A stretch of DNA of 64,000 nucleotides from Thermodesulfobacteriota bacterium (GTDB lineage Bacteria; Desulfobacterota; Desulfobulbia; Desulfobulbales; SURF-16), in NCBI GenBank assembly GCA_039714595.1, contig JBDLJA010000008.1:6565-70564 (forward strand), given 5' to 3'. The position numbers and the translations under genes are program-made. The stretch's first letter is position 1. Each line of letters begins with the position of its first letter. Shown here piece after piece: positions 197 to 37,233 of this stretch. The notes under the pieces were generated by a model, which saw only the letters and a list, made by a program, of their open reading frames with translations, had not been told where the DNA came from and did no database searches.

Positions 197-1498
197 TTAA
201 TCGAGGAAGAATTTCAACTTTTCCCGGCGGCTGGAGTGGCGCAACCGGTTCAGGGCCTTCTTCTCAATCTGTCTGATCCGCTCGCGGGAGACGTTGAAAC
301 GTTTGCCGATCTCCTCCAGGGTGTATTCGGCGTCCTCGCCGATACCGAAGCGCAGGCGGATGATCTTCTCCTCCCGGGGGCTCAAAGTGGCCAGGATGCC
401 GGTTACCCGGTCGGCCAGTTCATGGTTCTTCACCGCCTCGTAGGGCGAGATAGCCTCCTGGTTTTCCAGAAAATCGCCCAGGGTGGAGTCATCATCGCCC
501 ACTGGCGTCTCAAGGGAGATGGGCTCCCGGGAGGCCTCCAGGATGGCCAGGATCTTGTCCATGGGCAGGCCGGTCTTGGCGGAGATCTCCACCGGGGTGG
601 GCTCCCGGCCCAGTTCCTTCAAGAGGGAATAGAAGGCCTTGAAGAACTGGCTGCGCAGTTCCAGGAAGTGGACCGGCAGACGGATGGTCCGGGTCTTGTC
701 CAGGATGGCCCTGGTAATGGCCTGTCTGATCCACCAGGAGGCGTAGGTGGAGAATTTGTTGCCCTTGGTGTAGTCGAAGCGGAACACGGCCCGCATCAGC
801 CCCAGGTTGCCTTCCTGGATCAGGTCGGCCAGGCTCAACCCCTGGTGCATGTAGCGTTTGGCAATGGAGACCACCAGCCGCAGGTTGGCCTTGATCATGT
901 TGTCTTTGGCGCCCTCGATGGAGCGGGTGTAAAGACTGATCCGGTGGTTGCCATACTCCAGGGGCGCATTGTCAGGATTCTCCTCGACAATGGAGAGCAT
1001 GGTCCGGCGCATGTGGTTGAGGTGCTGTTTCTTTGGCTTTAAGGTGGGGTCCCGTTTCTCCCACAGGTCGATGCGCTCGGCCAGCATCCCCACGGCCGGG
1101 ATCTCCGACTGGTCGGTGCGGATGGTGCGGATGATGGAGTCAAAGCCCTCCCTGATGGTTTTGGAGTACTTCTCCTCCTCCTCAGGGGTGAGCAGCTCAA
1201 AGCGGCCCATCTCGCGCAGGTAGGTGGTGGTGGTTTCCTCCACCTCTTGGGGGGGCTCCAGCTTGTTCTCACCACTGCCATCGCTGTCCTTGTCGTCACC
1301 ACTTTTGCCTATGGCCTTCTGGGCCTCAGGGGGCAGGACGGTGACTATTTCGATACCGTTGGCGGTGAGGAAGTCAAGGATCTGATCAATATAGGTAGCA
1401 TCCTTGTCCAACGGAATGATGTCCGTGAGAAGGCCGATGCTGACACACTTGAATTGCTTGCCGAATTTAAGCAGCTTTTCTTGAATTTCTGCTGGCAC
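197..1498 (-). CDS. RNA polymerase sigma factor, sigma-70 (RpoD/SigA-like) family
   Basis: 433 aa. Region 2 reads DLIQEGNLGLMRAVFRFDYTKGNKFSTYASWWIRQAITRAI. Region 4 HTH reads TLEEIGKRFNVSRERIRQIEKKALNRLR. Shorter and more divergent than a typical primary RpoD, so group 1 versus group 2 is unresolved. Confidence 0.85.
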   Translation of the reverse strand: MPAEIQEKLLKFGKQFKCVSIGLLTDIIPLDKDATYIDQILDFLTANGIEIVTVLPPEAQKAIGKSGDDKDSDGSGENKLEPPQEVEETTTTYLREMGRFELLTPEEEEKYSKTIREGFDSIIRTIRTDQSEIPAVGMLAERIDLWEKRDPTLKPKKQHLNHMRRTMLSIVEENPDNAPLEYGNHRISLYTRSIEGAKDNMIKANLRLVVSIAKRYMHQGLSLADLIQEGNLGLMRAVFRFDYTKGNKFSTYASWWIRQAITRAILDKTRTIRLPVHFLELRSQFFKAFYSLLKELGREPTPVEISAKTGLPMDKILAILEASREPISLETPVGDDDSTLGDFLENQEAISPYEAVKNHELADRVTGILATLSPREEKIIRLRFGIGEDAEYTLEEIGKRFNVSRERIRQIEKKALNRLRHSSRREKLKFFLD

Positions 1499-1752
1499 AG
1501 GCAGATTTCTCCTATATGTATAAGGGAAGTGGGGGGCCGGCCAGAGGGGTTATACTTACACGGCTTGGCGGGCCTGATCTTACCTGGCAAAATAAAAAAA
1601 TATTTTGCAAAATAAGCACTTCCTGTGCTTAAAAATTTAAATGGTAAATAAAGTGCCAGAAGGCAAAAGGCTTTTGGCACGAAACAGAACATTTTAACCA
1701 CCATTTCTTTCTTTCGCAACCATTTTTGCGAAAACCCCCTGGAGGTTTACCC

Positions 1753-3243
1753 ATGGAAGGTCAGCGGCACTCTGGTATCCTGCTGCACGTCACCTCTCTG
1801 CCCGGCCCTTATGGTATCGGTGATATTGGCAGTGGCCTGGAATTTGTCGATTTCCTGGCTGCGGCCGGACAGCGTTGCTGGCAGTTTCTGCCCACCTGTC
1901 CCACGGCCGCGGCCTTTGGCCATTCCCCCTACATGGGCCTCTCCGCCCTGGCCGGCAATATTTTGTTTATCAGCCCGGATCTCCTGGTGGACCATGGCTG
2001 GCTGGCCCAGGAGGATATCGAGCCCCTGCCCCATGTCGCCACGCCCTTCACCGTTGATTTCCAGGCGGTGACCGCCTATAAGGAGCAGCTTCTCCTCCTG
2101 GCCCACGGCCGCCTGACAGAGGAGAAGCGCCAGGTGTTTGCTGAGTTCTGCGCCGGCCAGCCGTGGCTGGACGATTACGCCCTGTTCATGGTGGCCCGCA
2201 ATCACTACCAGGGAGCCTGGTCAGACTGGCCCGCGGAGCTGGCGGCCCGCAAGCCTACAGCCCTGGCGGAATTGGCCGGACGTTTTCCCCGTCAGCTTGA
2301 ACTGGTGAAGTTCGGCCAGTTTCTCTTCTATGAGCAGTGGGCCCTGCTTCTAAAAACGGCCCGGCAGCGGGGGGTCCGCCTCTGCGGCGATATCCCCATC
2401 TATGTTGGCCACGATTCCAGTGACGTCTGGGCCAACCAGGACTGTTTCCTTCTGGATGACGATTTTTTACCCAGCGTGGTGGCCGGCGTCCCCCCCGACT
2501 ACTTCAGCGCTACGGGGCAGCGCTGGGGCAACCCCCTTTACAGCTGGGAGACCCAGGGAGAGAAGAATAAAAGACTCTACGACTGGTGGCGCCAGCGTTT
2601 CGCCATCATCGGCCAGCAGGTGGACATGGTGCGTATCGATCACTTCCGCGGCTTCGAGGCGTACTGGCAGGTGCCGGCTGAGGAGGAGACCGCCCTGAAC
2701 GGCACCTGGGTCAAGGGGCCGGGGCGCCAATTTTTCAGCGATCTGGCCGAGGAGCTGGCCGATGTTGCCGTCATTGCCGAGGATCTGGGAATCATAACTC
2801 CGGAGGTTACGGCCCTGCGGGACGCTCTGGGCTATCCTGGGATGAAGATCCTCCAGTTTGCCTTTGATTCGGATGAGCGTAACCTCTACCTGCCCTTTAA
2901 CGTTACGGAAAACTCGGTGATCTACCCAGGAACCCATGATAATGATACCGCCCTGGGCTGGTACATGGACGGGGGTGTGGCCCAGCGCAGTAAGGATCGT
3001 CTGCGCCGGTTGGCCAACAGTGACGGTTCCGCCGTCCACCTCGACTTTATCCGCCTGGCCTATGGCTCGGTGGCTAACTTGGCCATTATCCCTTTGCAGG
3101 ATGTGTTGGGTTACGGCTCCGATTGCCGGATGAACCGGCCCGGGACCAGCCATGATAACTGGCTCTGGCGCGCTGGCGAGGTGTTCAGCTCTGATCTGGC
3201 CAACTTCCTCCGGGAGGAGGCCCGTTTCTATAACCGTCTCTGA
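1753..3243 (+). CDS. malQ: 4-alpha-glucanotransferase (amylomaltase, GH77)
   Basis: N-terminus GILLHVTSLPGPYGIGDIG, plus VRIDHFRGF and PGTHDNDT motifs typical of MalQ. Start moved from the TTG at 1726 to the ATG at 1753, which has GGAGG 7 nt upstream. Confidence 0.9.
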   Translation: MEGQRHSGILLHVTSLPGPYGIGDIGSGLEFVDFLAAAGQRCWQFLPTCPTAAAFGHSPYMGLSALAGNILFISPDLLVDHGWLAQEDIEPLPHVATPFTVDFQAVTAYKEQLLLLAHGRLTEEKRQVFAEFCAGQPWLDDYALFMVARNHYQGAWSDWPAELAARKPTALAELAGRFPRQLELVKFGQFLFYEQWALLLKTARQRGVRLCGDIPIYVGHDSSDVWANQDCFLLDDDFLPSVVAGVPPDYFSATGQRWGNPLYSWETQGEKNKRLYDWWRQRFAIIGQQVDMVRIDHFRGFEAYWQVPAEEETALNGTWVKGPGRQFFSDLAEELADVAVIAEDLGIITPEVTALRDALGYPGMKILQFAFDSDERNLYLPFNVTENSVIYPGTHDNDTALGWYMDGGVAQRSKDRLRRLANSDGSAVHLDFIRLAYGSVANLAIIPLQDVLGYGSDCRMNRPGTSHDNWLWRAGEVFSSDLANFLREEARFYNRL

Positions 3244-3315
3244 CCAGGGGCTAACCCTCTCTTCCGTCCCCAGCCATTAGCCGGCTTGGCCTTGACTTTT
3301 TTGGCTCATATTTTC

Positions 3316-3344
3316 TTGACAAGCGGCATGGCCTGGGGTAAATG
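3316..3344 (+). promoter_or_regulatory. predicted sigma-70 promoter for tRNA-Glu
   Basis: TTGACA (3316-3321), 17-nt spacer, TAAATG (3339-3344), about 20 nt upstream of the tRNA 5' end. Confidence 0.55.
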
Positions 3345-3365
3345 AACCTCTCTCAAAGAGAACAT

Positions 3366-3440
3366 GGCCCCTTCGTCTAGCGGTTAGGACGACGGCCTCT
3401 CACGCCGTAAACAGGAGTTCGATTCTCCTAGGGGTCACCA
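3366..3440 (+). tRNA. tRNA-Glu (anticodon CUC), CCA encoded
   Basis: Hand-folded cloverleaf. Acceptor GGCCCCT/AGGGGTC, anticodon stem ACGGC/GCCGT with loop CTCTCAC (anticodon CTC), T-arm GGAGT-TCGATTC-TCCTA, and 3' ACCA. Confidence 0.9.
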
Positions 3441-3450
3441 TTGTTTCAAA

Positions 3451-3486
3451 AGGGTTTAGCTAGTTATAGCTAAACCCTTTTTTTTG
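3451..3486 (+). terminator. rho-independent terminator after tRNA-Glu
   Basis: Stem AGGGTTTAGCTA/TAGCTAAACCCT with loop GTTA, followed by a T8 run. Confidence 0.85.
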
Positions 3487-3840
3487 TTTTACGGGGGGAT
3501 GTTGGCAACCCCCTATCTTCTCTCTCTGCCCCTTCCAGGCCGAACCGCAAGTTACCCGCGAATCTCTGGACAGCAGCCGCTGGCCGGCCCGCCCTTTTCT
3601 GAGAACTGCCACCGCGCTGCAAAAGCTGGGTAGCCCCTTCGGCTATTCCCCCCCCCTCTGCCACTTCGCCTTATCCCCACCCGCGTGATCCCTGTTCTTT
3701 CTTCGCTATAAAAAATATGGTTTTAACGCATAAATTCAGCTGGGTAGTAGTTTTTCAACGGCCTGTTGAGCTATACTCAAAGCTCTATATCTGTGGGACC
3801 ACTTGCAATTAATCTTCATTGATACCCTCTGGAGACACCT

Positions 3841-5325: not shown

Positions 5326-6207
5326 ATGCTGGAAAGCGCTGAAATAATCAGACAGGAATATCTGCGGCATGACAAAAAATTCCCCCATGTATGGTGCCCG
5401 GGCTGTGGCAATGGCATTGTTATGGGAGCCTTACTTCGCGCGGTCCATACCCTGGACTTAAGTAAAGATGAAGTGGTTCTTGCCTCTGGCATAGGTTGCT
5501 CGGGCCGGATGCCCACCTACGTTGATTTTAATACTATTCACACAACCCATGGCCGGGCCCTGACATTTTCCACCGGCATCAAGTTGGCCCGGCCGGAACT
5601 TACGGTTCTCACCGTCATGGGCGATGGCGATGCCACCGCCATTGGCGGCAATCATTTTATCCATGCCGCCAGGCGAAATATTGATCTCACCGCCATCATC
5701 ATCAATAATTCCACCTATGGTATGACTGGTGGCCAGTACTCACCAACTACTCCTTATGGTTCTAAATCAACCACCTCCATCTATGGTCATGTGGAACACT
5801 CCTTTTCCATTGCCGAGCTTGCCGTAACCGCTGGAGCTTCTTTTGTGGCCCGGGGAACGGTATATCACGCCGCCCACCTTGAACAGCTAATCAACCAGGC
5901 AATCAGTAAAAAAGGGTTTTCTGTGGTTGAGGTGATCTCAAACTGTCATGTCCAGCATGGCCGGAGAAACAAGCTTGGCGGAGCGGTTGAGATGATCAAC
6001 AGTTTTAAGGAAAATGCCGTGACGGTTGGTAAGGCCGAGAAGATGAGTGAGGAAGAGCTTGCCGGGAAATTTACCATTGGCGTCCTGGCAGATGTGGACA
6101 AACCCCTATCCACTGAGCAGTACCAGCGGGTTATTGCTGAAGCGAGGAAAAATGCTGTGAAGGCTGCTGAAGAAAAAGAAAAAACTAAGGTTAATCGTTA
6201 TGAGTGA
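5326..6207 (+). CDS. korB: 2-oxoacid:ferredoxin oxidoreductase beta subunit (TPP-binding)
   Basis: WCPGCGNGIV, GIGCSGR and GDGD motifs. AGGAG RBS. Confidence 0.85.
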   Translation: MLESAEIIRQEYLRHDKKFPHVWCPGCGNGIVMGALLRAVHTLDLSKDEVVLASGIGCSGRMPTYVDFNTIHTTHGRALTFSTGIKLARPELTVLTVMGDGDATAIGGNHFIHAARRNIDLTAIIINNSTYGMTGGQYSPTTPYGSKSTTSIYGHVEHSFSIAELAVTAGASFVARGTVYHAAHLEQLINQAISKKGFSVVEVISNCHVQHGRRNKLGGAVEMINSFKENAVTVGKAEKMSEEELAGKFTIGVLADVDKPLSTEQYQRVIAEARKNAVKAAEEKEKTKVNRYE

Positions 6208-6790
6208 TGAGAGGTATGAAATCAGATTCAGCGGCTCAGGAGGTCAGGGTATTATCACCGCAGCCGTGGTTCTTGCCGATGCAATCGGATCTTTTGACAA
6301 TAAATACGTGTGCCAGACCCAGAGTTATGGTCCCGAGGCCAGGGGGGGGAAGAGTAAGGCTGAGGTTGTTATCTCCAATTCACCCATAGATTACCCCAAG
6401 GCCCTGGAGGTTGACCTCCTCCTTGCCATGACTCAAGCGGCCTGTGACGCCTATTTTTTTGATATCAAGCCAGAGGGATTACTGGTTGTGGATAGTGGCC
6501 TTGTTGAGCAGTTGCCAACCAGTCGCGCCGTGTCAATCCCATTCACCCATATCGCCAGAAAAGAAATTGGCAGAGAACTTGTGGCAAACATGGTGGCCCT
6601 CGGGGCGGTTGGCTACCTCTGTAATCAGGTGGGTCTTGGCAGTCTTGAACAGGCCCTGCTGGCCCGGGTGCCCAGGGGGACGGAAAAAATGAACTCCGAG
6701 GCCTTGCAGGCTGGCATCGAGGCCGCGAGAAGTATTAATCTTGACTCATTACCCCGTTCAGTCCTCTCTGACTGGGATGATGAGTTGTAG
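6200..6790 (+). CDS. korC: 2-oxoacid:ferredoxin oxidoreductase gamma subunit
   Basis: RFSGSGGQGIITAAVVLA matches the gamma-subunit signature. 8-nt overlap with korB. Confidence 0.8.
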   Translation: MSDERYEIRFSGSGGQGIITAAVVLADAIGSFDNKYVCQTQSYGPEARGGKSKAEVVISNSPIDYPKALEVDLLLAMTQAACDAYFFDIKPEGLLVVDSGLVEQLPTSRAVSIPFTHIARKEIGRELVANMVALGAVGYLCNQVGLGSLEQALLARVPRGTEKMNSEALQAGIEAARSINLDSLPRSVLSDWDDEL

Positions 6791-6864
6791 GGGTAGTGAA
6801 GGCAGCTTTTTCCCTTGCCCTGCCAGGCGGCCCTGCAGGGGGGGGCTTTATTGTTACTGTTCAA

Positions 6865-7048
6865 GGTTAAAACCTTCGCCTTAGGCGAATAACAGCGCAG
6901 CGGTGTCTGTTTTGCTAGCAGCTGATTTTTTTGTTTGAAAAACGAATATCGAGGTCACCAGAAATATCGAATGATGAAGGGTGGAAGATATCTTAATTAA
7001 TAAAGAAAGTACCTTCCTTCGACATTCGACATTCGATATTCTGCGGTT
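6865..7048. repeat. structured intergenic repeat, type 3, copy A
   Basis: Aligns block by block with 36992-37136 (GGTTAAAACC.., GCTAGCAG.., CGAATATCGAGGTCACCAGAAAT.TCGAA, ..TCTTAAT..AAAGAAA.GTACCTTCCTTC..CTGCGGTTT). Contains nested inverted repeats (CGAATATCG/CGATATTC; GAAGG..GGAAG/CCTTCCTTC). Confidence 0.8.
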
Positions 7049-7054
7049 TTCCTG

Positions 7055-7088
7055 GACTTCTCGGAGTCTCGCTGCTCTCGCTTACCTG
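7055..7088. repeat. inverted fragment of the type-2 repeat core
   Basis: The reverse complement, GGTAAGCGA[GAGCAGCGA]GACTCCGAGAAGTC, matches AGGTAAGCGAAGACTCCGGGACTTC at 58918-58942 and 61315-61339 apart from a 9-nt insertion. Confidence 0.6.
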
Positions 7089-7170
7089 TCCGCGAAGCTA
7101 AACCCACCTGCTTGCATCTGCTGGTTGTTTAGTTTGTCTGGCGATAATCTTGCCTGCCGCCAAAGACCCC

Positions 7171-8310
7171 TTACCTCTTGCAACTCTCCACCTGGCGCGC
7201 TTCCAGGTTGAACACCTTGGTGATCGCCTCTTCTATGGATACCCCGCGCTCAAACCAGCGCCGGAAACAGTTGGCCTCAAGGCCCCACTCTTCATGAACC
7301 AGTTCAAGCTTGCCCCGTATCTCGCCTAAGAACTCGGTTAAATCCTCCTCGCTGTCCGCCTCGGAGTAGATCATATAATCGCAATGCTTGCGAAAGAGCA
7401 TGATGGAGCCATCGTAGTTGACCCGCCTCTCCCGGAAACGGGCAATTGTCTCGCGCAAGCGCTGACCGATCTCGTCATGGACCTGGTTGGCAACTATAAA
7501 GCCGTGCTCCTGTTGAAATCTGCCAAAATCCCTGAAGTTGATCAGTTGCAGTTCAAAGCCGGCGGTGCCGGTCTCGCCCAGGTGCTGCAGGTCGTCCAGG
7601 ACCAGTAAATAGCGGTAGTTATAAAGCTCGCTTATGGTATCCCGGAAGAATGAGTCGCGGCGGAAATGTTCGATCTCCTCCATGAAGCCGGCCGTGGGGT
7701 AGAGATAGTCCGACTCCGGGGCGAGATCATCGCCGATACTGATCAGGGCGGCCACCGCCTCCCTGTCAAGATGATTGTCCTTTGCCTCCTGCTCCAGGAG
7801 CTGGTGGGCGATCTTGCTGGTGAGGGGCTTTTTATAGGGCCTTTTGGCGGTGAGGGCCTCGAAGACATCGGCCACGGCCGTAATCCGCGACAGGAGATCG
7901 ATCTCCTCGCCCTGCAGCCCCAGGGGATAACCGCTGCCGTCAAGGCGTTCATGGTGGCGCAGGATAATATTGGTGATCTTGTCGTCGCTCACCCGTTTGG
8001 CAAAGAGTTTGGCCCCGATCAGGGGATGATACTCCATTATCCGCCTGTCCTGGACATTGAAGAGATCCGGTTTCAGGAGGATATCATCGGGGATGGCGGT
8101 CTTGCCGATATCATGGACCAATCCTGCCAGTTCCAGGATGTGCAACTCCTCGGCCGGCAGGCCCATAACCGCGCCAATCTCCTTGGCGATCGCCGCCACC
8201 CTGGTGGTATGTTCATAGGTCGGATAATCACGGCCGGCCAGGATCTCACTCATCACCTCAAAGAGGTCCTTAATGAGGGTATATTTCCCGAAATTGAGCA
8301 GTTGGTCCAC
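7171..8310 (-). CDS. HD-GYP domain c-di-GMP phosphodiesterase with C-terminal degenerate GGDEF-like domain
   Basis: HDIGK and HHERLDGSGYPLGL motifs lie in the N-terminal half. The C-terminal half has a GGDEF-fold-like pattern, but RKHCDY occupies the GGDEF position. Confidence 0.8.
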   Translation of the reverse strand: MDQLLNFGKYTLIKDLFEVMSEILAGRDYPTYEHTTRVAAIAKEIGAVMGLPAEELHILELAGLVHDIGKTAIPDDILLKPDLFNVQDRRIMEYHPLIGAKLFAKRVSDDKITNIILRHHERLDGSGYPLGLQGEEIDLLSRITAVADVFEALTAKRPYKKPLTSKIAHQLLEQEAKDNHLDREAVAALISIGDDLAPESDYLYPTAGFMEEIEHFRRDSFFRDTISELYNYRYLLVLDDLQHLGETGTAGFELQLINFRDFGRFQQEHGFIVANQVHDEIGQRLRETIARFRERRVNYDGSIMLFRKHCDYMIYSEADSEEDLTEFLGEIRGKLELVHEEWGLEANCFRRWFERGVSIEEAITKVFNLEARQVESCKR

Positions 8311-8313
8311 TCT

Positions 8314-9435
8314 TCAGCCTTTCTCGTTCCGGCGGGCCTTATTCCGCGCCTTCATGGTGTACATCTCCTGGTCGGCAATCTTGAGCAACTCGTCAATATC
8401 AGTGCTGTCTGCCGGATAAACACTCATGCCGATACTGAGCATAACGGTAATATTAAACCTCTGGCAGGCAATTTTTCTACTTAGGGTCTGCAAGATCTTC
8501 TCCTTCAAGACATTGGCGTCATCATTGGCCGTGACCCGGAAGATGCCGACAAATTCATCACCGCCGAAGCGGGCAATGATATCATCCTGGCGGATATTGG
8601 CCTTGAGATCTTCGGCCACCCGTTGCAAGACCTGATCGCCTACGTCATGGCCATAGTCGTCATTAATCGCCTTGAAGTCGTCCAGGTCGATGAAGGCCAC
8701 GACAAACATCGATTGCTGGCGACTGGCCTCCTTGAGGCGTTGCCTGAGATGTTCCATCAGAAGCGACCTGTTGGCCAGACCGGTGAGGGGATCATGGCCG
8801 GCCACATGCTCCAGCTTTCGCTGCAGTATCTTCAGGTCTGAGATGTCGCGGTTGCTGCCGCGAATGCCGATATTTTCACCCGTGCTGCTTTTGACGGTGC
8901 GGCAGACGTGGTGGATCCACTTGCGCTCTCCCGCCTTGGTGCGGATCTCAAACTCAATGGGCTCCACCACCCCGTTTTCAGCCCTGGTGTGGCTGTGCTC
9001 CAGCCACCTCTGCCAGTCGTCGGGGACGATGATTTTTTGCAGCAGGCCGGGGTTTTGATAGAACTCATCCGGCCCATAGCCCGTTAAATTCTCACAGGAG
9101 GGCGAGACATACTGATAATTACCATCTTCGTCCTGCCAATACTCCCAGTCATTGGCAAACTCCGAGATAACCCAGAGGGTCTCCTGCTGTTTGAGGAATG
9201 ACTCTTCCATGGCCCGCAACTTCTCTATCATGGCCTGCAGGTCTGAGATCGTTTCCTCAACCTGTCTCTTATGGACGGTAAATTTCTTCATATCTTTTTT
9301 GTAATGATTTCCGGCAGAGATGGCAATAGTTGCTTCAGCACCCAAGCCCGCTGCCGCTGCCGAAAATGGTAAGGCCAAATTGCTGGCGCCAAGGGGTGAC
9401 GGTTGGATTTGACCCCAATTAATAGTCTCTGCCAT
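8314..9435 (-). CDS. PAS domain-containing diguanylate cyclase (GGDEF)
   Basis: RFGGDEFVGIF active-site motif, upstream DPLTGLANR, and a PAS-like region (YVSPSCENLTGYGPDEF). 3 nt upstream of the HD-GYP gene. Confidence 0.85.
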   Translation of the reverse strand: MAETINWGQIQPSPLGASNLALPFSAAAAGLGAEATIAISAGNHYKKDMKKFTVHKRQVEETISDLQAMIEKLRAMEESFLKQQETLWVISEFANDWEYWQDEDGNYQYVSPSCENLTGYGPDEFYQNPGLLQKIIVPDDWQRWLEHSHTRAENGVVEPIEFEIRTKAGERKWIHHVCRTVKSSTGENIGIRGSNRDISDLKILQRKLEHVAGHDPLTGLANRSLLMEHLRQRLKEASRQQSMFVVAFIDLDDFKAINDDYGHDVGDQVLQRVAEDLKANIRQDDIIARFGGDEFVGIFRVTANDDANVLKEKILQTLSRKIACQRFNITVMLSIGMSVYPADSTDIDELLKIADQEMYTMKARNKARRNEKG

Positions 9436-9666
9436 CCATCCCGTAAATCACCGGCTTACCTCTTCTTGCCAGCAATCAAGAATTTAGGTAAATAGTTAAT
9501 TTTATGATTGTTTTCCAGCAATAATGTGATAATGTCCGACTCTATGAAAAGGTTACGGGCCTAATGGCTGGCTAGACTTTGCCATTTTTAATCGCCTGTA
9601 AGGGAATAGAAGGGGAAAGGTCTAGATAGAGCAATATCAAGGATATTTTCCACGTATTGCCATGTT

Positions 9667-10038
9667 ATGCTACGAAAAAAAATGAATATACGAATAATCA
9701 TATATTGCGCATTAATCTCTATATTTGCTTCTGCAATAACACCCATTTTCACCCTCATCACTTATATCCCGGACGAAGGCGAAATGGTCTATGACACAAC
9801 AAAAGAAGACGAAGAGAAAATGATCAATATGTCAAGTGAGGAACTAGACAACTATGTATCCAAACATGTAAAAATGAAAAGGCTTACAGGTTTTGAACGA
9901 ATTACATACCTGTTTTCCCGCCCTTCAATGGTTTTATATCACAAGGGTCTCTTATTAAGCACATTTGCAATTGTCTTTTCGTCAACATTAACAGCTAGTT
10001 TTCTTACGGTTAAACAATTGAAAAAGTCAAAAGAATAA
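9667..10038 (+). CDS. hypothetical small membrane protein (cassette-like ORF 1)
   Basis: 123 aa, AT-rich codon usage unlike the flanking genes, two hydrophobic segments. An attC site follows immediately. The start could instead be the ATG at 9682. Confidence 0.5.
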   Translation: MLRKKMNIRIIIYCALISIFASAITPIFTLITYIPDEGEMVYDTTKEDEEKMINMSSEELDNYVSKHVKMKRLTGFERITYLFSRPSMVLYHKGLLLSTFAIVFSSTLTASFLTVKQLKKSKE

Positions 10039-10042
10039 AACC

Positions 10043-10166
10043 GCATAACAATACGCTCAAGTACGACGCGCAAACTTGCGCTTTGCTGAATCGGCTTCGG
10101 CCATCTTTACTACAACCCGAACTTACTCAACCTCGGCTAGGCGCGCGTCTTAGCTTTGCGTTAGAT
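10043..10166 (+). mobile_element. integron attC recombination site (124 bp)
   Basis: R'' GCATAAC (10043-10049), then AATAC, then L''-like GCTCAAG. At the other end L'-like CTTAGC, then TTTGC, then R' GTTAGAT (10160-10166). Inner arms GACGCGC/GCGCGTC pair. It begins 5 nt after the ORF1 stop and ends 30 nt before the next ORF. Confidence 0.7.
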
Positions 10167-10196
10167 GTCACAATAATAATTTTGGAGAAATGCATA

Positions 10197-10673
10197 ATGA
10201 GAAAATCAATCGTAATATTTATTTTAATAATTTTTTATCCAGTATCATCTGGGGCAATTGACACTGTACATGACAGAGAGATTGAGCGACAAAACAGAAT
10301 AGCAAATATTGAAAAAACAGTACCAGTAAGTCGTCCAGCTCAACCAACCAAACCAGGATATACACTTAAAGACCTTGCAGATCATACTAAAACAATGTCG
10401 GATAATGACTGGAAGTCTTTACGAAATTTAGAAAATTGTCTTGCGAAAGTTGAAGAAGAACAATTAGGAGGACTATTCGCAGGGTTAATGTCTTTCAATT
10501 TAACCGAAAGTATTTTTGCAATTGGAGAAGCTATGTTTAATGAAATAAAAGGAAGTGATTGTCATGAAAAAAACCAACTAACACATAATGCTGCAACATA
10601 TAAGAATATTTATACATCTTTAACAAGAGACCAAATAAGAAATCAAAAGAATGCAGCTCGTGATATTCTTTAG
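10197..10673 (+). CDS. hypothetical secreted protein (cassette-like ORF 2)
   Basis: Start moved to ATG 10197, which has a GGAGA RBS. Signal-peptide-like MRKSIVIFILIIFYPVSSGA. AT-rich. No recognisable domain. Confidence 0.55.
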   Translation: MRKSIVIFILIIFYPVSSGAIDTVHDREIERQNRIANIEKTVPVSRPAQPTKPGYTLKDLADHTKTMSDNDWKSLRNLENCLAKVEEEQLGGLFAGLMSFNLTESIFAIGEAMFNEIKGSDCHEKNQLTHNAATYKNIYTSLTRDQIRNQKNAARDIL

Positions 10674-10686
10674 GTTTTAAAATTAC

Positions 10687-10795
10687 ATCTAACAGTTCAA
10701 TCCATCTGACTCGCGAGATCGTTCCCTTGGCCAGTTCAGCGGCCTTACTTCCCTGGCGCCTTATGCGCCATTTGCTGGGCAGGCGCGGGTTGTCT
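10687..10795 (+). mobile_element. degenerate attC-like site
   Basis: The left half, ATCTAAC-AGTTC-AATCC, fits an R''/spacer/L'' layout and starts 14 nt after the ORF2 stop. The right end, GTTGTCT, is a poor GTTRRRY match and L-box pairing is weak. Confidence 0.35.
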
Positions 10796-10829
10796 TGTGC
10801 CTTATGAATACAAAAAGGAGAGTAAAATT

Positions 10830-11246
10830 ATGAAAAAATTATTATTTGTCCTGCTTTTTATAGTTAGTTCAGCTAGTTCTTCTCTTGCTAGTGAACCTGC
10901 CATTGAAGCAGGTTTCAAGGCGTTTAAAGAAGATGGGGTTGAAGCCGCGTGGAAGAGTTGGGCTAAAAATGGCCCACTGGAAGGGAGCACAGAATTAATG
11001 GCTCAAGCCTCTCAATTTGGTCAAATAGGAACTTATTTCGGTAAATATTTTAGCCATGAGTATGTAGCAACAAAACAGTTAGGCCCAAATAACAAAATAG
11101 TTTTCGTCATCATGAACCTGGAAAAAGGGCCATTATTTGGCAGGTTTTTGGTATTTCGCAACTCAGAAGGCAAATGGACATTACCAAGCTTTAAATTCAA
11201 TACTGATCCAGAGCAAATTTGGCCCGCAACAATATACTCTAATTAA
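10830..11246 (+). CDS. hypothetical secreted protein (cassette-like ORF 3)
   Basis: Start moved to ATG 10830, which has an AAGGAGAG RBS. Signal peptide MKKLLFVLLFIVSSASSSLASE. AT-rich. No recognisable domain. Confidence 0.55.
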   Translation: MKKLLFVLLFIVSSASSSLASEPAIEAGFKAFKEDGVEAAWKSWAKNGPLEGSTELMAQASQFGQIGTYFGKYFSHEYVATKQLGPNNKIVFVIMNLEKGPLFGRFLVFRNSEGKWTLPSFKFNTDPEQIWPATIYSN

Positions 11247-11393
11247 TAAGGCGATTTACTTCATAGTTCACTTTGCAAAAGAGCCTGGTCGGTTGGCTTG
11301 AGGGCCGAAACCCAACCTACTGGTTTGAGAAAACCAAACTAAGATTGAGCCGGCCGGCAAATCGGCTTAATTTGCCTCTAATCAGAAAGGATT

Positions 11394-12053
11394 ATGTCTA
11401 TCAAGGTACCGAAACTGGCCAGGGTGCCAAAGATTGATGGGGATTGGCATAAATACCCCTGGCGGGATATGGAGCCGGAGTTGCTTGGCAACTACATGGG
11501 GGAGATGCCGGACCATAGGCCCAGGGCAGAGGTGAAGATTGCCTATGACGACCATGCCTTATACCTGATCTTCCGGGTGGCGGACCGATACGTGCGGGCG
11601 GTGGCGGAAAATCATCAGGATCCTGTCTGTGGCGACAGCTGCGTGGAGTTCTTCTTTAGCCCTGGCCCGGATGTGGCAGATGGCTATTTCAACTTGGAGG
11701 TCAACTGCGGCGGCACAATGCTCTTCCACTTTCAAAAGGTACCGCGTCAGAACCCCATCGCCCTCCCTGCGAGTGAGTATGACAAAGTTGAGATTGGCCA
11801 CTCGCTGCCCCAGCTTGTTGACCCTGAGATCGAGACGCCCCTTAGCTGGACCGTTGAGTATCGTCTGCCCCTGGATATTCTGGCCAGCTACTGTTATCTC
11901 ACCAGGCCGGCCCCAGGCGTTACCTGGCGCGCCAATTTCTGCAAATGCGCCGACAACTCCTCCCACCCTCACTGGCTCACATGGTCATTGCTTGACTATC
12001 CGCGGCCCAACTTCCATCTCCCGCAATTTTTTGGGCTGCTGGAGTTTAGGTGA
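11394..12053 (+). CDS. carbohydrate-binding family 9-like (CBM9/DOMON-like) domain protein
   Basis: 219 aa, with PKIDGDWHKYPW...YDDHALYLIFRV...DSCVEFFFSP...YFNLEVN...WRANFCK. The pattern resembles CBM9_2-type proteins. No signal peptide. Confidence 0.5.
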   Translation: MSIKVPKLARVPKIDGDWHKYPWRDMEPELLGNYMGEMPDHRPRAEVKIAYDDHALYLIFRVADRYVRAVAENHQDPVCGDSCVEFFFSPGPDVADGYFNLEVNCGGTMLFHFQKVPRQNPIALPASEYDKVEIGHSLPQLVDPEIETPLSWTVEYRLPLDILASYCYLTRPAPGVTWRANFCKCADNSSHPHWLTWSLLDYPRPNFHLPQFFGLLEFR

Positions 12054-12344: not shown

Positions 12345-13274
12345 ATGCGTTCCTTCGGCAGCAGAATCTCTCTTGTTGTTTCATTATTCATGCTCGTTTC
12401 ATTCATGGCGGGCTGCAGGGTCTATGTCCCGCCTCCGCCGACCCCGGTGGTCGTCGCCCCGGTGCCTCAGCCGCGTCATCATCGCCACCGGCCAAAGATC
12501 TACAACTATCGTTATTTCCCCGGGCCGCAGGTCTACTATGATCGTGGCCGGGAAGTCTACTTCTACCTGGAAGGGAATGCCTGGCGCACTGCCGCTGTGC
12601 TGCCGCGCCACATCCATATTGAGTTTGATGATTTTTTACGGGTGGAGCTTGAAGGCCCCAGGCCCTACGTCCATCATAAGACGGTGTATAAGCGCTATCC
12701 CCCCTATCGCTACAAGAAGAAGCACAAGAAGCGCCGTAAGGTTGTAAAAAAACAGCGTAAATATAGCAAGAAGCAGCACAAAGAGTATCGCAAGGACCAA
12801 AAAGAACGGCGCAAGTATGAAGAGATGCGCAGTAGAGAGCATCGCAAGGATCTAAAAGAGCAGCGCAAGTACGAAGAGATGCGCCGCGAAGAGGATCGCC
12901 AGGATCTAAGGGAGCGGCGTAAATACGAAGAGATGCGCGGCAAAGAGGATCGCCGGGATCACCGGGAGCAGCGCAGATACGAAGAGATGCGCGGCAAAGA
13001 GGATCGCCGGGATCACCGGGAGCAGCGCAGATACGAAGAGATGCGCAGCAAAGAGGATCGCCGGGATCATAGGGCAGAACGCAGATACGAAGAGGAGCAC
13101 AGGGGCGATAAAAAGCCGCGTAAGTATAAGAAAAAACACAAGAAAGATTACCGCGAAGACGATGATGAGCGGGAATATCGGGAATATGAGGATAGGCCGC
13201 GTGGCGACTATCGTCAGGATGGCGATCGGCGCCAATACGATGGGGACCGCTATGAGTACTATCGCCAGGATTAA
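12345..13274 (+). CDS. lipoprotein with highly charged Arg/Lys/Glu/Asp tandem-repeat C-terminal region
   Basis: Lipobox LVSFMAGC. Pro-rich linker. Tyr-rich domain (YRYFPGPQVYYDRGREVYFYLEGNAWR). Then about six 18-aa repeats of the form (K/R)E(Q/R)R(K/R)YEEMR(G/S)KEDRRDH. AAAGGAG RBS. Confidence 0.75.
   Translation: MRSFGSRISLVVSLFMLVSFMAGCRVYVPPPPTPVVVAPVPQPRHHRHRPKIYNYRYFPGPQVYYDRGREVYFYLEGNAWRTAAVLPRHIHIEFDDFLRVELEGPRPYVHHKTVYKRYPPYRYKKKHKKRRKVVKKQRKYSKKQHKEYRKDQKERRKYEEMRSREHRKDLKEQRKYEEMRREEDRQDLRERRKYEEMRGKEDRRDHREQRRYEEMRGKEDRRDHREQRRYEEMRSKEDRRDHRAERRYEEEHRGDKKPRKYKKKHKKDYREDDDEREYREYEDRPRGDYRQDGDRRQYDGDRYEYYRQD
12801..13100 (+). repeat. in-frame 54-bp tandem repeat, about 5.5 copies
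   Basis: Units start at 12801, 12855, 12909, 12963, 13017 and 13071. Units 12963-13016 and 13017-13070 are 52/54 identical. Confidence 0.9.
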
Positions 13275-14558: not shown

Positions 14559-14963
14559 AGGGCGGGAAAATCCTCTCTCCTCTGCTGCCAACCAATCTCA
14601 TTTTTTATTCTCGGCTTCACCCCTTCTCTTTAGAATTTGCTCGCCAAATCCCCATGGCGCTTCTCTCCTGCCAACATCAGCAGCGATCTAGCTGATATCA
14701 TTCATTAGTCTTGATTTTCTCCCGCAATACCGTTACCTCTTCCTGACAGACTAATCTTGTTTTCCCGGCCCTGTCATGGGGGAGGCCTGGGCGTTAGGGT
14801 CAGCCTTTTGTCCGGGAAACAGGGTAGGGGGGCAATATCTAAGGTGTATAGGCTCAGCTCTCGACCTATTAGCGTCTGTAAGTATGTTGCCCCGCCCTAT
14901 CTAACCCTGAGAATCAGAGGTCCTATTTGTAGCACAGGCCTCCAAATAAAAAAATGTATAGCC

Positions 14964-15539
14964 ATGGATAAGAAATTTGTCAGGTGGATTGTTGGAGCAG
15001 TCGTTGTCCCCTTAATAATAGCCGTTTTGAGTATATTCGGTGTTCAGATAAAGGATGCTCTATTTCCTGCACCTCCTCCAGAAATTGGAGACGGGCTAAC
15101 AGCTTCATTGGAGAAAAGGCTGATTGTTCTGGAAGCGAAATTTGACACTATTGCCAGATTTATCCATGTGCAACCAGTTTCTAAAGATGTTGCCTCAGAA
15201 AGAAAAAGTATATCTGATGCGGAAAAATTCAACGATGGAATCACAATTAAGAATGACTCTCAATACTCGGGCCGAAATCTTTATGTCGGTAAAAGGGCTT
15301 GGGACTGGACCGTCTACCTGGAAGCTGATCTTGATATCTTAAAAAGGATATCTTGTGTAAAATATCATCTTCACCCAACCTTCGGAGATAGCCCCAAAAC
15401 AATATGCCACCAAGGCAAGCAGTCAAAAGCATTTTCTTTTTCCACTACAGGGTGGGGTACATTTAATATTGGAGTAACAGTAGAGTTTAAAGATGGGTCA
15501 GAATTTACCACCAATCATTATCTTACATTTGCTAAATAG
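14964..15539 (+). CDS. membrane-anchored protein with C-terminal prokaryotic YEATS-like (pYEATS) domain
   Basis: 191 aa from ATG 14964. The 69-codon upstream extension in the ORF track is GC-skewed, non-protein-like sequence. TM helix WIVGAVVVPLIIAVLSIFGV. The C-terminus, WDWTVYLEA..ISCVKYHLHPTFGDSP..TTGWGTFNIGVTVEFKDG, matches the YEATS fold pattern. Low GC. Confidence 0.6.
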   Translation: MDKKFVRWIVGAVVVPLIIAVLSIFGVQIKDALFPAPPPEIGDGLTASLEKRLIVLEAKFDTIARFIHVQPVSKDVASERKSISDAEKFNDGITIKNDSQYSGRNLYVGKRAWDWTVYLEADLDILKRISCVKYHLHPTFGDSPKTICHQGKQSKAFSFSTTGWGTFNIGVTVEFKDGSEFTTNHYLTFAK

Positions 15540-15606
15540 ATATTAATGGTTCTACTTTATAAGAAGAGTAATATGTTTAAATATCAACAAAGGGGGGAGC
15601 ATACTA

Positions 15607-16488
15607 ATGGCAAAATTAATTCTTTCACTTGATGGCGGTGGCATACGGGGAGCGGCAACAGCGGAGTTCCTGCGCAAGCTGGAAAAGCAGTTGGCTAAAC
15701 CGTTACATAATACCTTTGATATGTTCATTGGCACCTCCACCGGGGGAATTATCGCGGCGGCCATAAGCAGCCTGAAGATGGCGGGCGAGGACTTGGCTCA
15801 GCTCTATAATCAAGAGAATGGCAGGGAGATTTTTCCGCAATCGTTCTGGGACCGGACATTAATCACCCAGAACCAACCGAAGTACGATGGGGAAGGGAAA
15901 CTAAGTGTCTTGAAGAGGTACTTTGGCAAACGGCTGCTGAGGAGCTCAGCCAAGCCTCTGGTGGTAACCGCTTACGATGTTGAACGGCGTAAGCCAAAAC
16001 TGTTCAAGTCATATGAGGAAGATGACACGAGGGTGGTTGACGCGGTGAACGCCACCTCGGCCGCGCCCACCTATTTCCCCACGGTTGAGGTGAATGGCGC
16101 CTGGTTAATTGATGGCGGCGTGATTATCAACAACCCGACCATGACCGGATTTGCTGAGGCCAAAGAGAGGTGGCCGGATGAGGAGATCAAGATACTCTCT
16201 GTGGGCACCGGGACAAGAACCAGGCCCATTCCTGGGGAGAAGTCGGCGGACTATGGGGCCATAGGCTGGTTTAAGCACGATCTTTTGGGAGTTGTCACCG
16301 ATGAGGCCATTGTTCATCTCCAGGCCAAGACTATCCTGGCCGATAGATATGTGCGGGTAAATTCCGAGCTGAAAAAGGCGGACGACGACATGGACAACGT
16401 TAAACAGGGCAACCTGGACAACCTCAAAAAGCTTGGCCAGAAATGGTGGGCTGACCATGGCCAGGAGGCAATCAGTCTCTTGAGTTAG
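15607..16488 (+). CDS. patatin-like phospholipase
   Basis: DGGGIRG oxyanion-hole motif, GTSTG nucleophile elbow and LIDGGV catalytic Asp motif are all intact. 293 aa. GGGGGAG RBS. Confidence 0.85.
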   Translation: MAKLILSLDGGGIRGAATAEFLRKLEKQLAKPLHNTFDMFIGTSTGGIIAAAISSLKMAGEDLAQLYNQENGREIFPQSFWDRTLITQNQPKYDGEGKLSVLKRYFGKRLLRSSAKPLVVTAYDVERRKPKLFKSYEEDDTRVVDAVNATSAAPTYFPTVEVNGAWLIDGGVIINNPTMTGFAEAKERWPDEEIKILSVGTGTRTRPIPGEKSADYGAIGWFKHDLLGVVTDEAIVHLQAKTILADRYVRVNSELKKADDDMDNVKQGNLDNLKKLGQKWWADHGQEAISLLS

Positions 16489-36991: not shown

Positions 36992-37136
36992 GGTTAAAAC
37001 CTCCGCCTCTTAGGCGGACAGCTTTCAGCTAGCAGTTGCATTTTTTTACAGCGAATATCGAGGTCACCAGAAATGTCGAACCGCAGAAGGAAGGATGTTA
37101 TCTTAATAAAGAAAAGTACCTTCCTTCTGCGGTTTG
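36992..37136. repeat. structured intergenic repeat, type 3, copy B
   Basis: See 6865-7048. Contains a perfect 15-bp inverted repeat ACCGCAGAAGGAAGG/CCTTCCTTCTGCGGT (37080-37094 / 37119-37133). Confidence 0.8.
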
Positions 37137-37196
37137 TTTTTTAAACCGGCTGCGTCAGCCTGGCCGGTATTGCTGGATTTTGCGGTCCGCGATTTC

Positions 37197-37233
37197 AAAC
37201 CCACCGGCTTTATAGCCGGTGGGTTTTTTTCTT
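37197..37233 (+). terminator. rho-independent terminator (hairpin usable on both strands)
   Basis: 13-bp stem AAACCCACCGGCT/AGCCGGTGGGTTT with loop TTAT, followed by T7. It lies 6 nt from the selU stop on the other strand. Confidence 0.75.

Follow-up and report, generated by a model that had tools for sequence, protein, structure and literature searches.

A probable remnant of an integron gene cassette array, with no integrase nearby, in the chromosome of an uncultured Thermodesulfobacteriota bacterium

An AT-rich islet (positions 9436–11393) in the chromosome of an uncultured Thermodesulfobacteriota MAG, a relative of sulfate reducers, is most probably a small set of integron gene cassettes in array, partly decayed, whose integrase was either lost or never adjoined it. 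We put the probability of this reading at about 0.85, a figure that covers the cassette nature of the locus and not the route by which it originated. The reading is favored because the locus contains a match to attC covariance models, because this match displays the canonical pairing and bulges, and because the boundary of each predicted cassette is complementary to the R'' box of that cassette. All positions refer to the window, that is, the whole 64-kb stretch of DNA that was analyzed.

Setting and composition of the islet

The islet fills an intergenic gap between housekeeping genes and, by composition, is foreign DNA. Its GC content is 0.397 in the left intergenic region, 0.339 in ORF1, 0.323 in ORF2, and 0.386 in ORF3, against 0.53–0.56 in the flanking genes and 0.581 in the whole 64-kb window; GC3 is 0.34, 0.17, and 0.32 in the three ORFs, respectively, compared to 0.67–0.76 in the neighboring genes. 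The initial annotation, which described an AT-rich segment with three small, co-directional ORFs devoid of recognizable domains, is borne out by these values (GC 0.32–0.40 and GC3 0.17–0.34 across the islet), by the location of all three ORFs on the plus strand, and by searches of Pfam, NCBIfam, and PADLOC, none of which assigned ORF1, ORF2, or ORF3 to a family. The features of the locus are as follows.

8314–9435, minus strand: GGDEF gene, the left flank, divergent from cassette 1
9436–9664, no strand: left intergenic region between the GGDEF gene and cassette 1; GC 0.397
9664–9670, plus strand: putative left cassette junction core GTTATGC (R' type, GTT + ATGC), from complementarity with R'' of attC1
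9665–10160, plus strand: predicted cassette 1, 496 bp, comprising ORF1 and attC1 as far as the R' box G, from core complementarity and the attC match
9667–10038, plus strand: ORF1, 123 aa, alternative start at 9682, from the ORF list; GC3 0.339
10043–10166, plus strand: attC1, a complete 124-nt attC, from the covariance-model match, pairing, and bulges
10161 to about 10790, plus strand: predicted cassette 2, about 630 bp, starting with TTAGAT and holding ORF2 and the attC2 remnant; start from R' of attC1, 3' end undefined
10197–10673, plus strand: ORF2, 158 aa, N-terminal signal-peptide-like segment and GGAG ribosome-binding site; GC3 0.17
10687–10795, plus strand: attC2 remnant, left half intact, L' and R' missing
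10830–11246, plus strand: ORF3, 138 aa, signal peptide (predicted secreted); family cassette-borne elsewhere; GC3 0.324
11247–11393, no strand: right spacer, reaching the CBM9_2 gene; GC 0.456
11394–12053: CBM9_2 gene, the right flank, GC-normal

In the left intergenic region, the best covariance-model score was at most 4.3 bits, so that no attC was recognized there, and neither attI-like conservation nor an intI remnant was detected; no sigma-70-like promoter was found on the plus strand of 9436–9664, and no Pc-like promoter was found on that strand 5' of cassette 1. The right spacer yielded no covariance-model match and no attC. The right junction of the islet, which would lie somewhere between about 10790 and 11393, has been destroyed. 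A classical genomic island was considered and rejected, given the absence of flanking direct repeats and of an adjoining tRNA gene (tRNA-Glu, at a distance of 6 kb, is the closest). A search of a plasmid collection matched neither the islet DNA nor the ORF3 protein.

The attC sites and the cassette junctions

The boxes of attC1 run in the order R'' GCATAAC (10043–10049), spacer AATAC, and L'' GCTCAAG (10055–10061) on the left, and L' CTTAGC (10149–10154), TTTGC, and R' GTTAGAT (10160–10166) on the right. The site is co-oriented with ORF1, starts 5 nt past its stop codon, and ends 18 nt 5' of the GGAG ribosome-binding site of ORF2; both the attC layout and the placement between the two genes thus agree with the initial annotation. 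Two covariance models were employed, R1, for which 18 attC sites of clinical class 1 integrons were the sole input, and R2, built from the clinical sites together with 9 environmental attCs, none taken from the window; both are surrogates for the curated IntegronFinder attC model, and their E-values are rough. With R1, attC1 scored 28.2 bits (E = 2e-4) over the full model (1–72), the match covering exactly 10043–10166 on the plus strand and being the sole significant one in the window. With R2, the score was 48.3 bits (E = 9e-11), again the sole match in the window with the filters off, the runner-up scoring 10.4 bits. Across a control set of environmental DNA from elsewhere, 1.0 Mb in total, the top scores were 22.7 bits (R1) and 26.1 bits (R2), both below attC1, so that scoring with a covariance model, the check proposed along with the annotation, was passed with surrogate models. 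The model structure is itself supported by covariation among the known sites (80.8% of the cells paired; none of 500 shuffles reached the observed value).

Within attC1, 16 of the 18 model pairs are Watson-Crick, and the bulged C10058 and A10066 of the top strand, corresponding to extrahelical G and T on the bottom strand, coincide with both bulge positions of the model. The R' box GTTAGAT fits GTTRRRY exactly, and the R'' box GCATAAC, shared with the clinical arr-2 and VIM-2 attCs, is off RYYYAAC at one Y position, which is why a strict RYYYAAC...GTTRRRY regular expression misses the site. With the bulged C bracketed, attC1 (GCATAAC-AATAC-GCT[C]AAG ... CTTAGC-TTTGC-GTTAGAT) has a layout like that of the aadA1 attC (GTCTAAC-AATTC-GTT[C]AAG ... 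CTTAAC-TCAAGC-GTTAGAT). In the clinical class 1 sites compared, namely, 60-mers of the aadA1/aadB type, arr-2 (114 nt), blaIMP-1 (127 nt), and blaVIM-2 (72 nt), the same two model positions carry the bulged C and A, and the length of attC1, 124 nt, falls inside the known attC range of 57–141 nt. attC1 differs from these sites in one additional unpaired T (10062), which separates the L box from the stem, in a center unrelated in sequence, as is the case between all attCs, and in its location on the chromosome of an uncultured Thermodesulfobacteriota and not on a plasmid or transposon. Judged by its sequence and pairing, attC1 is a genuine attC. A single site belongs to the class where the authors of IntegronFinder expect false positives (PMC9024848). 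An Rfam 15 scan of 9000–12000 returned chance matches only, and Rfam 15 contains no attC family.

The second site is a remnant. Its left half consists of the R'' box ATCTAAC (10687–10693), the spacer AGTTC, and an L''-like AATCCAT, and the inner stem ACTCGCG/CGCGGGT is retained. Against a position weight matrix for attC left halves, it scored 7.8 bits, ranking 13th of about 128,000 positions, whereas as a whole site it received a covariance-model score of 3.2 bits; a good left half with an unusable right half is what the initial annotation had reported. A shorter reading of this site, with GTTCAGC (10734–10740) as R', also scored 3.2 bits, leaves the L boxes unpaired, and was rejected. With one complete attC, one half-site, and none after ORF3, the earlier description of three ORFs separated by attC-like sites was overstated.

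In integrons generally, a cassette passes through a circular form, the bottom strand of its attC folds into an imperfect hairpin through pairing of the R''/R' and L''/L' boxes, with extrahelical G and T, and the IntI tyrosine recombinase cuts between the G and the TT of R', so that the cassette starts with TTRRRY complementary to its own R''. If the same steps operated here, each cassette of the islet would once have been a circle, and its first bases would be accounted for. GTTATGC at 9664 and the attC1 R'' GCATAAC (10043–10049) are exact reverse complements of each other, which would place the left crossover between G9664 and T9665; the same holds for the attC1 R' GTTAGAT (10160) and ATCTAAC at 10687. 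The probability of a chance occurrence is 0.016 for GTTATGC in the shuffled 9436–9700 region and 0.009 for ATCTAAC in the shuffled spacer, and the joint probability of these two independent complementarities is about 1e-4. The two core pairs (9664/10043 and 10160/10687) therefore define two putative cassettes. A 5'-GWT-3' genomic site would fit the G|TT of the left junction, although recombination at attI or attC would look identical.

Gene content and relatives

ORF1 has hydrophobic N- and C-terminal segments suggestive of a small membrane protein; no homologue of it was found, nor a Pfam match above the cut-off. It lacks a ribosome-binding site, and because of this and the lack of a database counterpart, ORF1 may not be a gene. 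ORF2 matched only itself among 5.8 billion clustered proteins, and a search of 1.84 billion representatives added two remote relatives with 28–30% identity. Both ORF1 and ORF2 can thus be regarded as effective orphans, as is typical of cassette genes. The earlier designation of the ORFs as orphans fits these two but not ORF3, which has at least 9 homologues with 56–72% identity. The structural model of ORF3 (pLDDT 82.4) predicts an NTF2/cystatin-like alpha+beta fold, with weak fold matches (E about 2e-3, TM about 0.45–0.5).

Homologues of ORF3 are found in environmental cassette arrays. In the loci denoted L002 (ENA ERZ23498405), L003, and L004, an attC (20.5 bits) lies 9 nt past the stop codon of the homologue, within arrays that use the same GTTATGC/GCATAAC cores as the window, and in L001 (the Thermodesulfobacteriota MAG GCA_040757625.1), the homologue adjoins an array of at least 6 attCs. 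The neighboring genes differ in every context. By gene order, then, the ORF3 family is cassette-borne in metagenomic arrays. In the window, the covariance models detected no attC 3' of ORF3, and this region did not align with the attC that follows the L002 homologue. L001 and L002 resemble the window in the core pair, in the AT-rich small ORFs located between GC-richer attCs, and in the lack of an integrase in the sequence examined, but they retain from 3 to at least 6 recognizable attCs, as opposed to one and a half in the window, and, apart from ORF3, which lies inside the array in L002 and beside it in L001, have no genes or flanks in common with it. The flanks on the left of the L001 array and the window array share only the sequence ATGTTATGCT, and no common attI was identified.

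Among the homologues found, there is no conserved ORF1-attC-ORF2-ORF3 block, and no close relatives were found; nor did the relatives retrieved via the neighbor genes include an empty-site or variant locus. The CBM9_2 neighbor is widespread, its best relative being 62% identical among the matches listed, and the relatives of a lineage-specific 355-aa neighbor are at most 68% identical and lack further genes in common with the window.

No integrase is encoded in the 64-kb window (best E of 3.3 in a tblastn search with IntI1; Pfam scans of the neighbor genes negative), as had been noted at the outset, and there is no signal of an intI pseudogene or tyrosine recombinase within the 9.4 kb to the left or the 52 kb to the right of the islet. 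The sizeable genes within 10 kb on either side have other Pfam assignments or none, with no integrase among them; the coding space in this range is occupied by unrelated housekeeping genes, and no transposase or insertion sequence was found nearby.

Classification and origin

A CALIN contains at least 2 attC sites (PMC4889954; PMC9024848), whereas a SALIN is a coding sequence with one attC in whose vicinity neither a further att site nor an integrase lies (bioRxiv 10.1101/2022.09.11.507474). RefSeq genomes contain 3400 SALINs and 2961 CALINs, and small elements of both kinds are common and can form via IntI-mediated insertion at GWT genomic sites (bioRxiv 10.1101/2022.09.11.507474). The islet shares with these elements a chromosomal location, promoterless, co-oriented small ORFs of unknown function bounded by attC, the lack of an intI pseudogene or insertion sequence nearby and of an integrase at distances of up to 4 kb or 10 kb, and cassettes unrelated to resistance cassettes; 95% of the CALINs have no intI pseudogene in their vicinity (PMC4889954). 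The single complete attC in 64 kb, as recognized by the surrogate models, together with the absence of an integrase corresponds to a SALIN; the count falls short of the two sites of a CALIN with these models, although the IntegronFinder model itself, run with --local-max, might give a different result. Thus, the initial description as CALIN-like holds with regard to integron cassettes, attC, and the missing integrase but not to the number of complete sites. Formally, the islet would be a SALIN or a decayed two-cassette CALIN, a borderline case due to the adjacent half-site, and it differs from CALINs in having one complete attC plus one 5' half, followed by a third cassette-family gene without an attC. 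Compared to a complete integron, the cassette structure and the apparent recombination logic are alike, but the window has no intI, no attI or conserved attI-like flank was recognized at the islet, and no Pc-like promoter was found 5' of cassette 1.

Granted a cassette origin, the most likely course of events, to which we assign roughly an even chance, is the secondary-site, or attG, route: a circle of two cassettes would have entered the genome at a site other than an att site, with the integrase acting in trans. This route is favored because no attI, attC half, or intI remnant is present on the left of G9664 and because the site lies in a gap between housekeeping genes. Because no attC follows ORF3 and the islet has no defined right junction, this route requires a secondary deletion; the 3' half of attC2 would have been lost later, by deletion or rearrangement, and today cassette 2 would be fixed in place, whereas the attC of cassette 1 would be potentially recombinogenic. 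What the sequence shows is the model-based identity of the attC, the complementary junctions, the foreign composition, and the lack of an integrase; the route of origin, the mobility of the cassettes at this locus, the order of events, and the expression of the islet genes are what we infer. More tentatively still, the entire islet might be a natural footprint of the attG pathway, which was described only recently: a circle of two cassettes would have been inserted in trans at a GWT, not an att site, between housekeeping genes, and a secondary, imprecise event would have eliminated the 3' half of attC2 and juxtaposed ORF3, a member of a secreted, NTF2-like cassette family circulating among relatives of sulfate reducers; as a whole, this chain of events is conceivable rather than likely.

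The cassettes could be real but the residue of an integron formerly located here or elsewhere in this genome, either because intI and attI were deleted or because a rearrangement separated a piece of a larger array from its integrase. This alternative, which competes with the attG route only, appears unlikely, although it deserves serious consideration. Integrase loss and rearrangement are the proposed, classical origins of CALINs (PMC4889954); the missing 3' half of attC2 indicates that decay or rearrangement already took place at the locus; ORF3, a cassette-family gene without an attC, resembles an older, more decayed cassette; and the longer integrase-less array in the related MAG L001 suggests that such arrays are resident in the lineage. 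Furthermore, the integrase search covers the 64-kb window, and intI could lie in the rest of the genome. Against this possibility stand the negative search for an intI pseudogene or tyrosine recombinase signal over the 9.4 kb and 52 kb on the two sides, the unrelated housekeeping genes that fill the surrounding 10 kb without an insertion sequence or transposase nearby, and the left boundary, a clean G|TTATGC core that lacks both a conserved attI-like flank and half of an attC, which fits site-specific insertion better than random breakage.

It is very improbable that the islet has nothing to do with integrons and is a generic acquired AT-rich segment in which a terminator or REP-like palindrome resembles attC by chance. 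The folding energetics are compatible with such an explanation: the free energy of attC1 is no better than that of shuffled sequences, with unremarkable z-scores of +0.18 and -0.63, and the site ranks 183rd of 1864 AAC...GTT pairs by a crude hairpin energy, a ranking that is uninformative because the genome is GC-rich. The fold anticipated for 10043–10166 was recovered with respect to both canonical bulges and 16 of the 18 pairs, but the unconstrained minimum free energy structure (-18.7 kcal/mol) is slightly off the register of the canonical fold (-16.1 kcal/mol). Additionally, attC1 encloses a small terminator-like hairpin (10085–10101) and is the only complete site. Nevertheless, its model scores exceed all those in 1 Mb of control DNA, the match boundaries coincide with the R'' and R' boxes to the nucleotide, the two junction complementarities have the low joint probability given above, the left half of a second attC occurs in the expected place, and members of the ORF3 family reside in true arrays of attCs; moreover, the palindrome does not represent a REP family because there is no further copy in the window. 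Least probable of all is an assembly or binning artefact that joined foreign reads into the MAG contig, for although ORF2 and ORF3 are known from this single NCBI contig only and the Logan assembly of SRR27843389, in which housekeeping genes of the window do have exact copies, has no record of either exact product, the islet is internal to one contig with unbroken host-like sequence on both sides, its junctions fall at meaningful cores (9664 and the attC boxes) rather than at arbitrary points, and the flanking GGDEF and CBM9 genes are equally not on record, so that gaps in the index or other start-codon calls are the more likely cause.

An integrase-less cassette remnant is a common, already described kind of element, and given that such cassettes are counted in thousands in RefSeq, the specialist interest of this one is modest. 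It is a clean example from an uncultured Thermodesulfobacteriota, in which the junction logic is legible nucleotide by nucleotide and apparent stages of decay, a complete attC, half an attC, and no attC, lie side by side; a default IntegronFinder run, in which 2 attC sites are required, would probably drop this real locus. ORF3 appears to tie a family of small secreted proteins, with a predicted NTF2-like fold, to the environmental cassette pool. If the islet is indeed an attG footprint, it would provide field evidence for this route outside the Proteobacteria, where the attG pathway was demonstrated.

Composition and setting of the AT-rich islet

The islet at 9436-11393 is foreign by composition, its GC content falling from a window mean of 0.581 to 0.397 at 9436-9664, 0.339 in ORF1, 0.323 in ORF2 and 0.386 in ORF3, with third-codon-position GC of 0.34, 0.17 and 0.32, respectively, versus 0.67-0.76 in five genes nearby. 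GC is higher in the two spacers between the ORFs (0.508 and 0.474). All three ORFs run in the same direction: ORF1 encodes two hydrophobic segments and has no obvious ribosome-binding site, and ORF2 and ORF3 are preceded by GGAG/AGGAG ribosome-binding sites and encode signal-peptide-like N-termini. None matched a family in Pfam, NCBIfam or PADLOC, and no match to IntI1 was detected by tblastn in the window (best E 3.3). The initial annotation of an AT-rich islet with three small co-directional ORFs, one of membrane type and two with signal peptides, lacking recognisable domains and an integrase in the window, is thus borne out. Proteins identical to ORF2 and ORF3 carry the locus tags ABFR97_04265 and ABFR97_04270, respectively, in a Thermodesulfobacteriota metagenome-assembled genome (MAG), the latter on an 85-kb contig.

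The islet sits among ordinary chromosomal genes, including those for an RpoD-like sigma factor, 4-alpha-glucanotransferase and pyruvate:ferredoxin oxidoreductase subunits. To the left of the islet lie genes for HD-GYP and PAS-GGDEF proteins; on the right are those for a CBM9_2-domain protein, homoserine dehydrogenase, phosphoglycerate mutase, RseP and Dxr. No transposase, flanking direct repeat or adjoining tRNA was found at the islet, and no sigma-70-like promoter was predicted on the + strand upstream of the first cassette. Short contigs in the Logan assembly of run SRR27843389 encode proteins that exactly match the housekeeping gene products at 5326-6207 and 60299-61255. No such exact match is on record there for ORF2, the GGDEF gene or the CBM9 gene (8314-12053), which may reflect a gap in the index or a heterogeneous islet.

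Several other features of the window were recorded. A 309-aa protein (12345-13274, +) of extreme K/R/E content has tandem RKYEEMR-x-KEDRRDHREQR repeats, a lipoprotein-like N-terminal segment and no Pfam family. A second AT-rich patch (14757-16488, +; GC 0.435), some 3.4 kb to the right of the islet, has a gene for a 260-aa protein that ends in a prokaryotic YEATS domain (PF20305, 3.9e-19) and, after it, one for a 293-aa patatin-like phospholipase (PADLOC 'Effector phospholipase' PDLC00757, 3.9e-66); the pair is a candidate two-gene defence module, with no adjoining cyclase. Two strong perfect hairpins near each other, of 16 bp (37075-37138) and 12 bp (37194-37229), scored highest in the window hairpin scan and are probably terminators.

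Covariance-model analysis of the attC sites

No attC family exists in Rfam, and neither a strict regular expression nor fold energies or z-scores were informative for site 1 (10043-10166), so surrogate covariance models were built. An aadA attC 60-mer was confirmed, with 58/60 bases matching at 100% in ~2000 plasmids, and eleven class 1 integron arrays with annotation yielded 18 attC sites of 57-133 nt. Their alignment was given the textbook attC structure, in which R'' pairs with R', L'' pairs with L' except for one bulge, and the stem holds a second; 80.8% of cells pair, with clear covariation, and 0 of 500 shuffles reached the observed value. Model R1 comprises these 18 sites, with no sequence from the window or its relatives, and R2 adds 9 attCs found by R1 in two related metagenomic loci. 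Given that the E-values of these models are rough, a control search covered 1.0 Mb of unrelated loci from environmental genomes and metagenomes.

R1 matched 10043-10166 on the + strand over the full model with 28.2 bits (E 2e-4 in a 95-kb search, a rough value; E 6e-6 in the surrounding 3 kb without filters), and the next match in the window had E 0.59. With R2 on the whole window, filters off, the site scored 48.3 bits (E 9e-11, rough) and the runner-up 10.4 bits. The best control scores, 22.7 bits (R1) and 26.1 bits (R2), are both below those of site 1, which therefore passes the covariance-model check with the surrogates. Every box initially annotated is present at its position, and Watson-Crick pairs form at 16 of the 18 model pairings. 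The two exceptions fall at the outermost bases of the R boxes, which an arrayed attC owes to the neighbouring cassette. C10058 and A10066 fill the model's two bulge positions; on the bottom strand these are the extrahelical G and T. The canonical bottom-strand fold (-16.1 kcal/mol) is plausible but is not the predicted optimum (-18.7 kcal/mol).

Among the control loci, attC-like matches occur at 165-226 of a Pseudomonadota MAG locus (L020; 22.7 and 26.1 bits) and at 7327-7390 of a Desulfobacterales MAG locus (L018; 21.2 bits), the latter ~600 nt upstream of its own CBM9_2 homologue; either could be a true isolated attC or a chance match.

For site 2 (10687-10795), the annotated good left half and degenerate right half were both recovered. 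The left half, ATCTAAC-AGTTC-AATCCAT, ranks 13 of ~128,000 positions with an attC left-half PWM, where site 1 ranks first, and the inner stem ACTCGCG/CGCGGGT is retained; no L' or R' lies 3' of it, and the whole site scores 3.2 bits. Site 2 is a truncated attC.

Cassette junctions and related arrays

An integrated cassette starts with TTRRRY, the bases that completed the R' and paired with the R'' of the same cassette while it was a circle. This rule holds at both testable junctions of the islet: the exact reverse complement of the attC1 R'' (GCATAAC) is found at 9664-9670 (GTTATGC), and that of the attC1 R' (GTTAGAT) at 10687-10693 (ATCTAAC), 14 nt past the ORF2 stop codon. The probabilities in local-sequence shuffles are 0.016 for GTTATGC and 0.009 for ATCTAAC, and the whole 64 kb contains just 2-4 copies of each 7-mer. 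These complementarities set the bounds of cassette 1 and the start of cassette 2.

Cassettes of the islet and comparison arrays
9665-10160, +: cassette 1, 496 bp, from core complementarity
10161, +: start of cassette 2, from core complementarity with 10687-10693
L001 (GCA_040757625.1, JBFLWU010000012) 5563-9250, +: array with at least 6 attC hits in intergenic gaps, without integrase
L002 (ENA ERZ23498405 scaffold_56163; also L003, L004) 543-3704: array with attCs at 543-630, 1639-1760 and 3579-3704

ORF1 to ORF3 had been described as orphans. This in effect holds for ORF1, for which no relative was found, and for ORF2, with two remote relatives only among 1.84 billion representatives, but not for ORF3, which has at least nine homologues (56-72% identity) whose gene neighbours differ in every context. 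In three metagenomic loci (L002, L003 and L004), an attC (20.5 bits) lies 9 nt past the ORF3 homologue in a three-attC array, and the cassette carrying it starts with GTTATGC and has the R'' GCATAAC. In L002 this cassette encodes a 187-aa membrane protein with the ORF3 homologue; in another, an Rce1-like protease is encoded together with a 340-aa protein. In L001, a locus of a second Thermodesulfobacteriota MAG that also lacks an IntI1 match, the ORF3 homologue lies just outside the array, whose cassette genes include those for DUF6988 and FRG-domain proteins and whose start, ATGTTATGCT, is a 10-mer identical to that at the left junction of the window. ORF3 is a secreted protein of unassigned function, with a predicted structure (pLDDT 82.4) forming an alpha+beta cone of three helices and four strands with weak, NTF2/cystatin-like structural matches.

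The L001 array also contains two near-identical ~216-nt units (5974-6189 and 7745-7960) with no ORF, each directly 3' of another attC and comprising a GC hairpin (GTTCCTCCCGCCGCATTCGCGGCGGGAGGAAC) and its own 141-nt attC (19.8 and 9.4 bits). They may be ORF-less cassettes bearing a structured element.

Classification and origin of the locus

The locus is an integrase-less remnant of integron gene cassettes. The initial reading, three ORFs separated by attC sites in a CALIN-like arrangement, is supported for attC1 and two cassettes and fails where site 2 is truncated and no attC follows ORF3: the covariance models detected none 3' of ORF3, and its 3' flank did not align with the attC 3' of a homologue. 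By the published definitions, two attC sites are the minimum for a CALIN (PMC4889954; PMC9024848), and one alone makes a SALIN (bioRxiv 10.1101/2022.09.11.507474), so that, with one and a half sites, this locus is borderline between the two and would probably be dropped in a default IntegronFinder run.

On the left the cassettes are bounded by a bare G|TTATGC core, with no attC half, attI-like conservation or intI trace beside it, and this boundary falls in an intergenic gap where the neighbours are housekeeping genes. IntI-mediated insertion at a secondary genomic (attG, GWT) site therefore fits better than loss of the integrase in situ; we give such an insertion about half the confidence placed in the cassette origin itself. 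The right end of the islet is rearranged under any scenario. Among the matches listed for neighbouring genes, no close relative was found that would show an empty site or conserved synteny. As an integrase-less cassette remnant, the element is a further case of a well-known kind.
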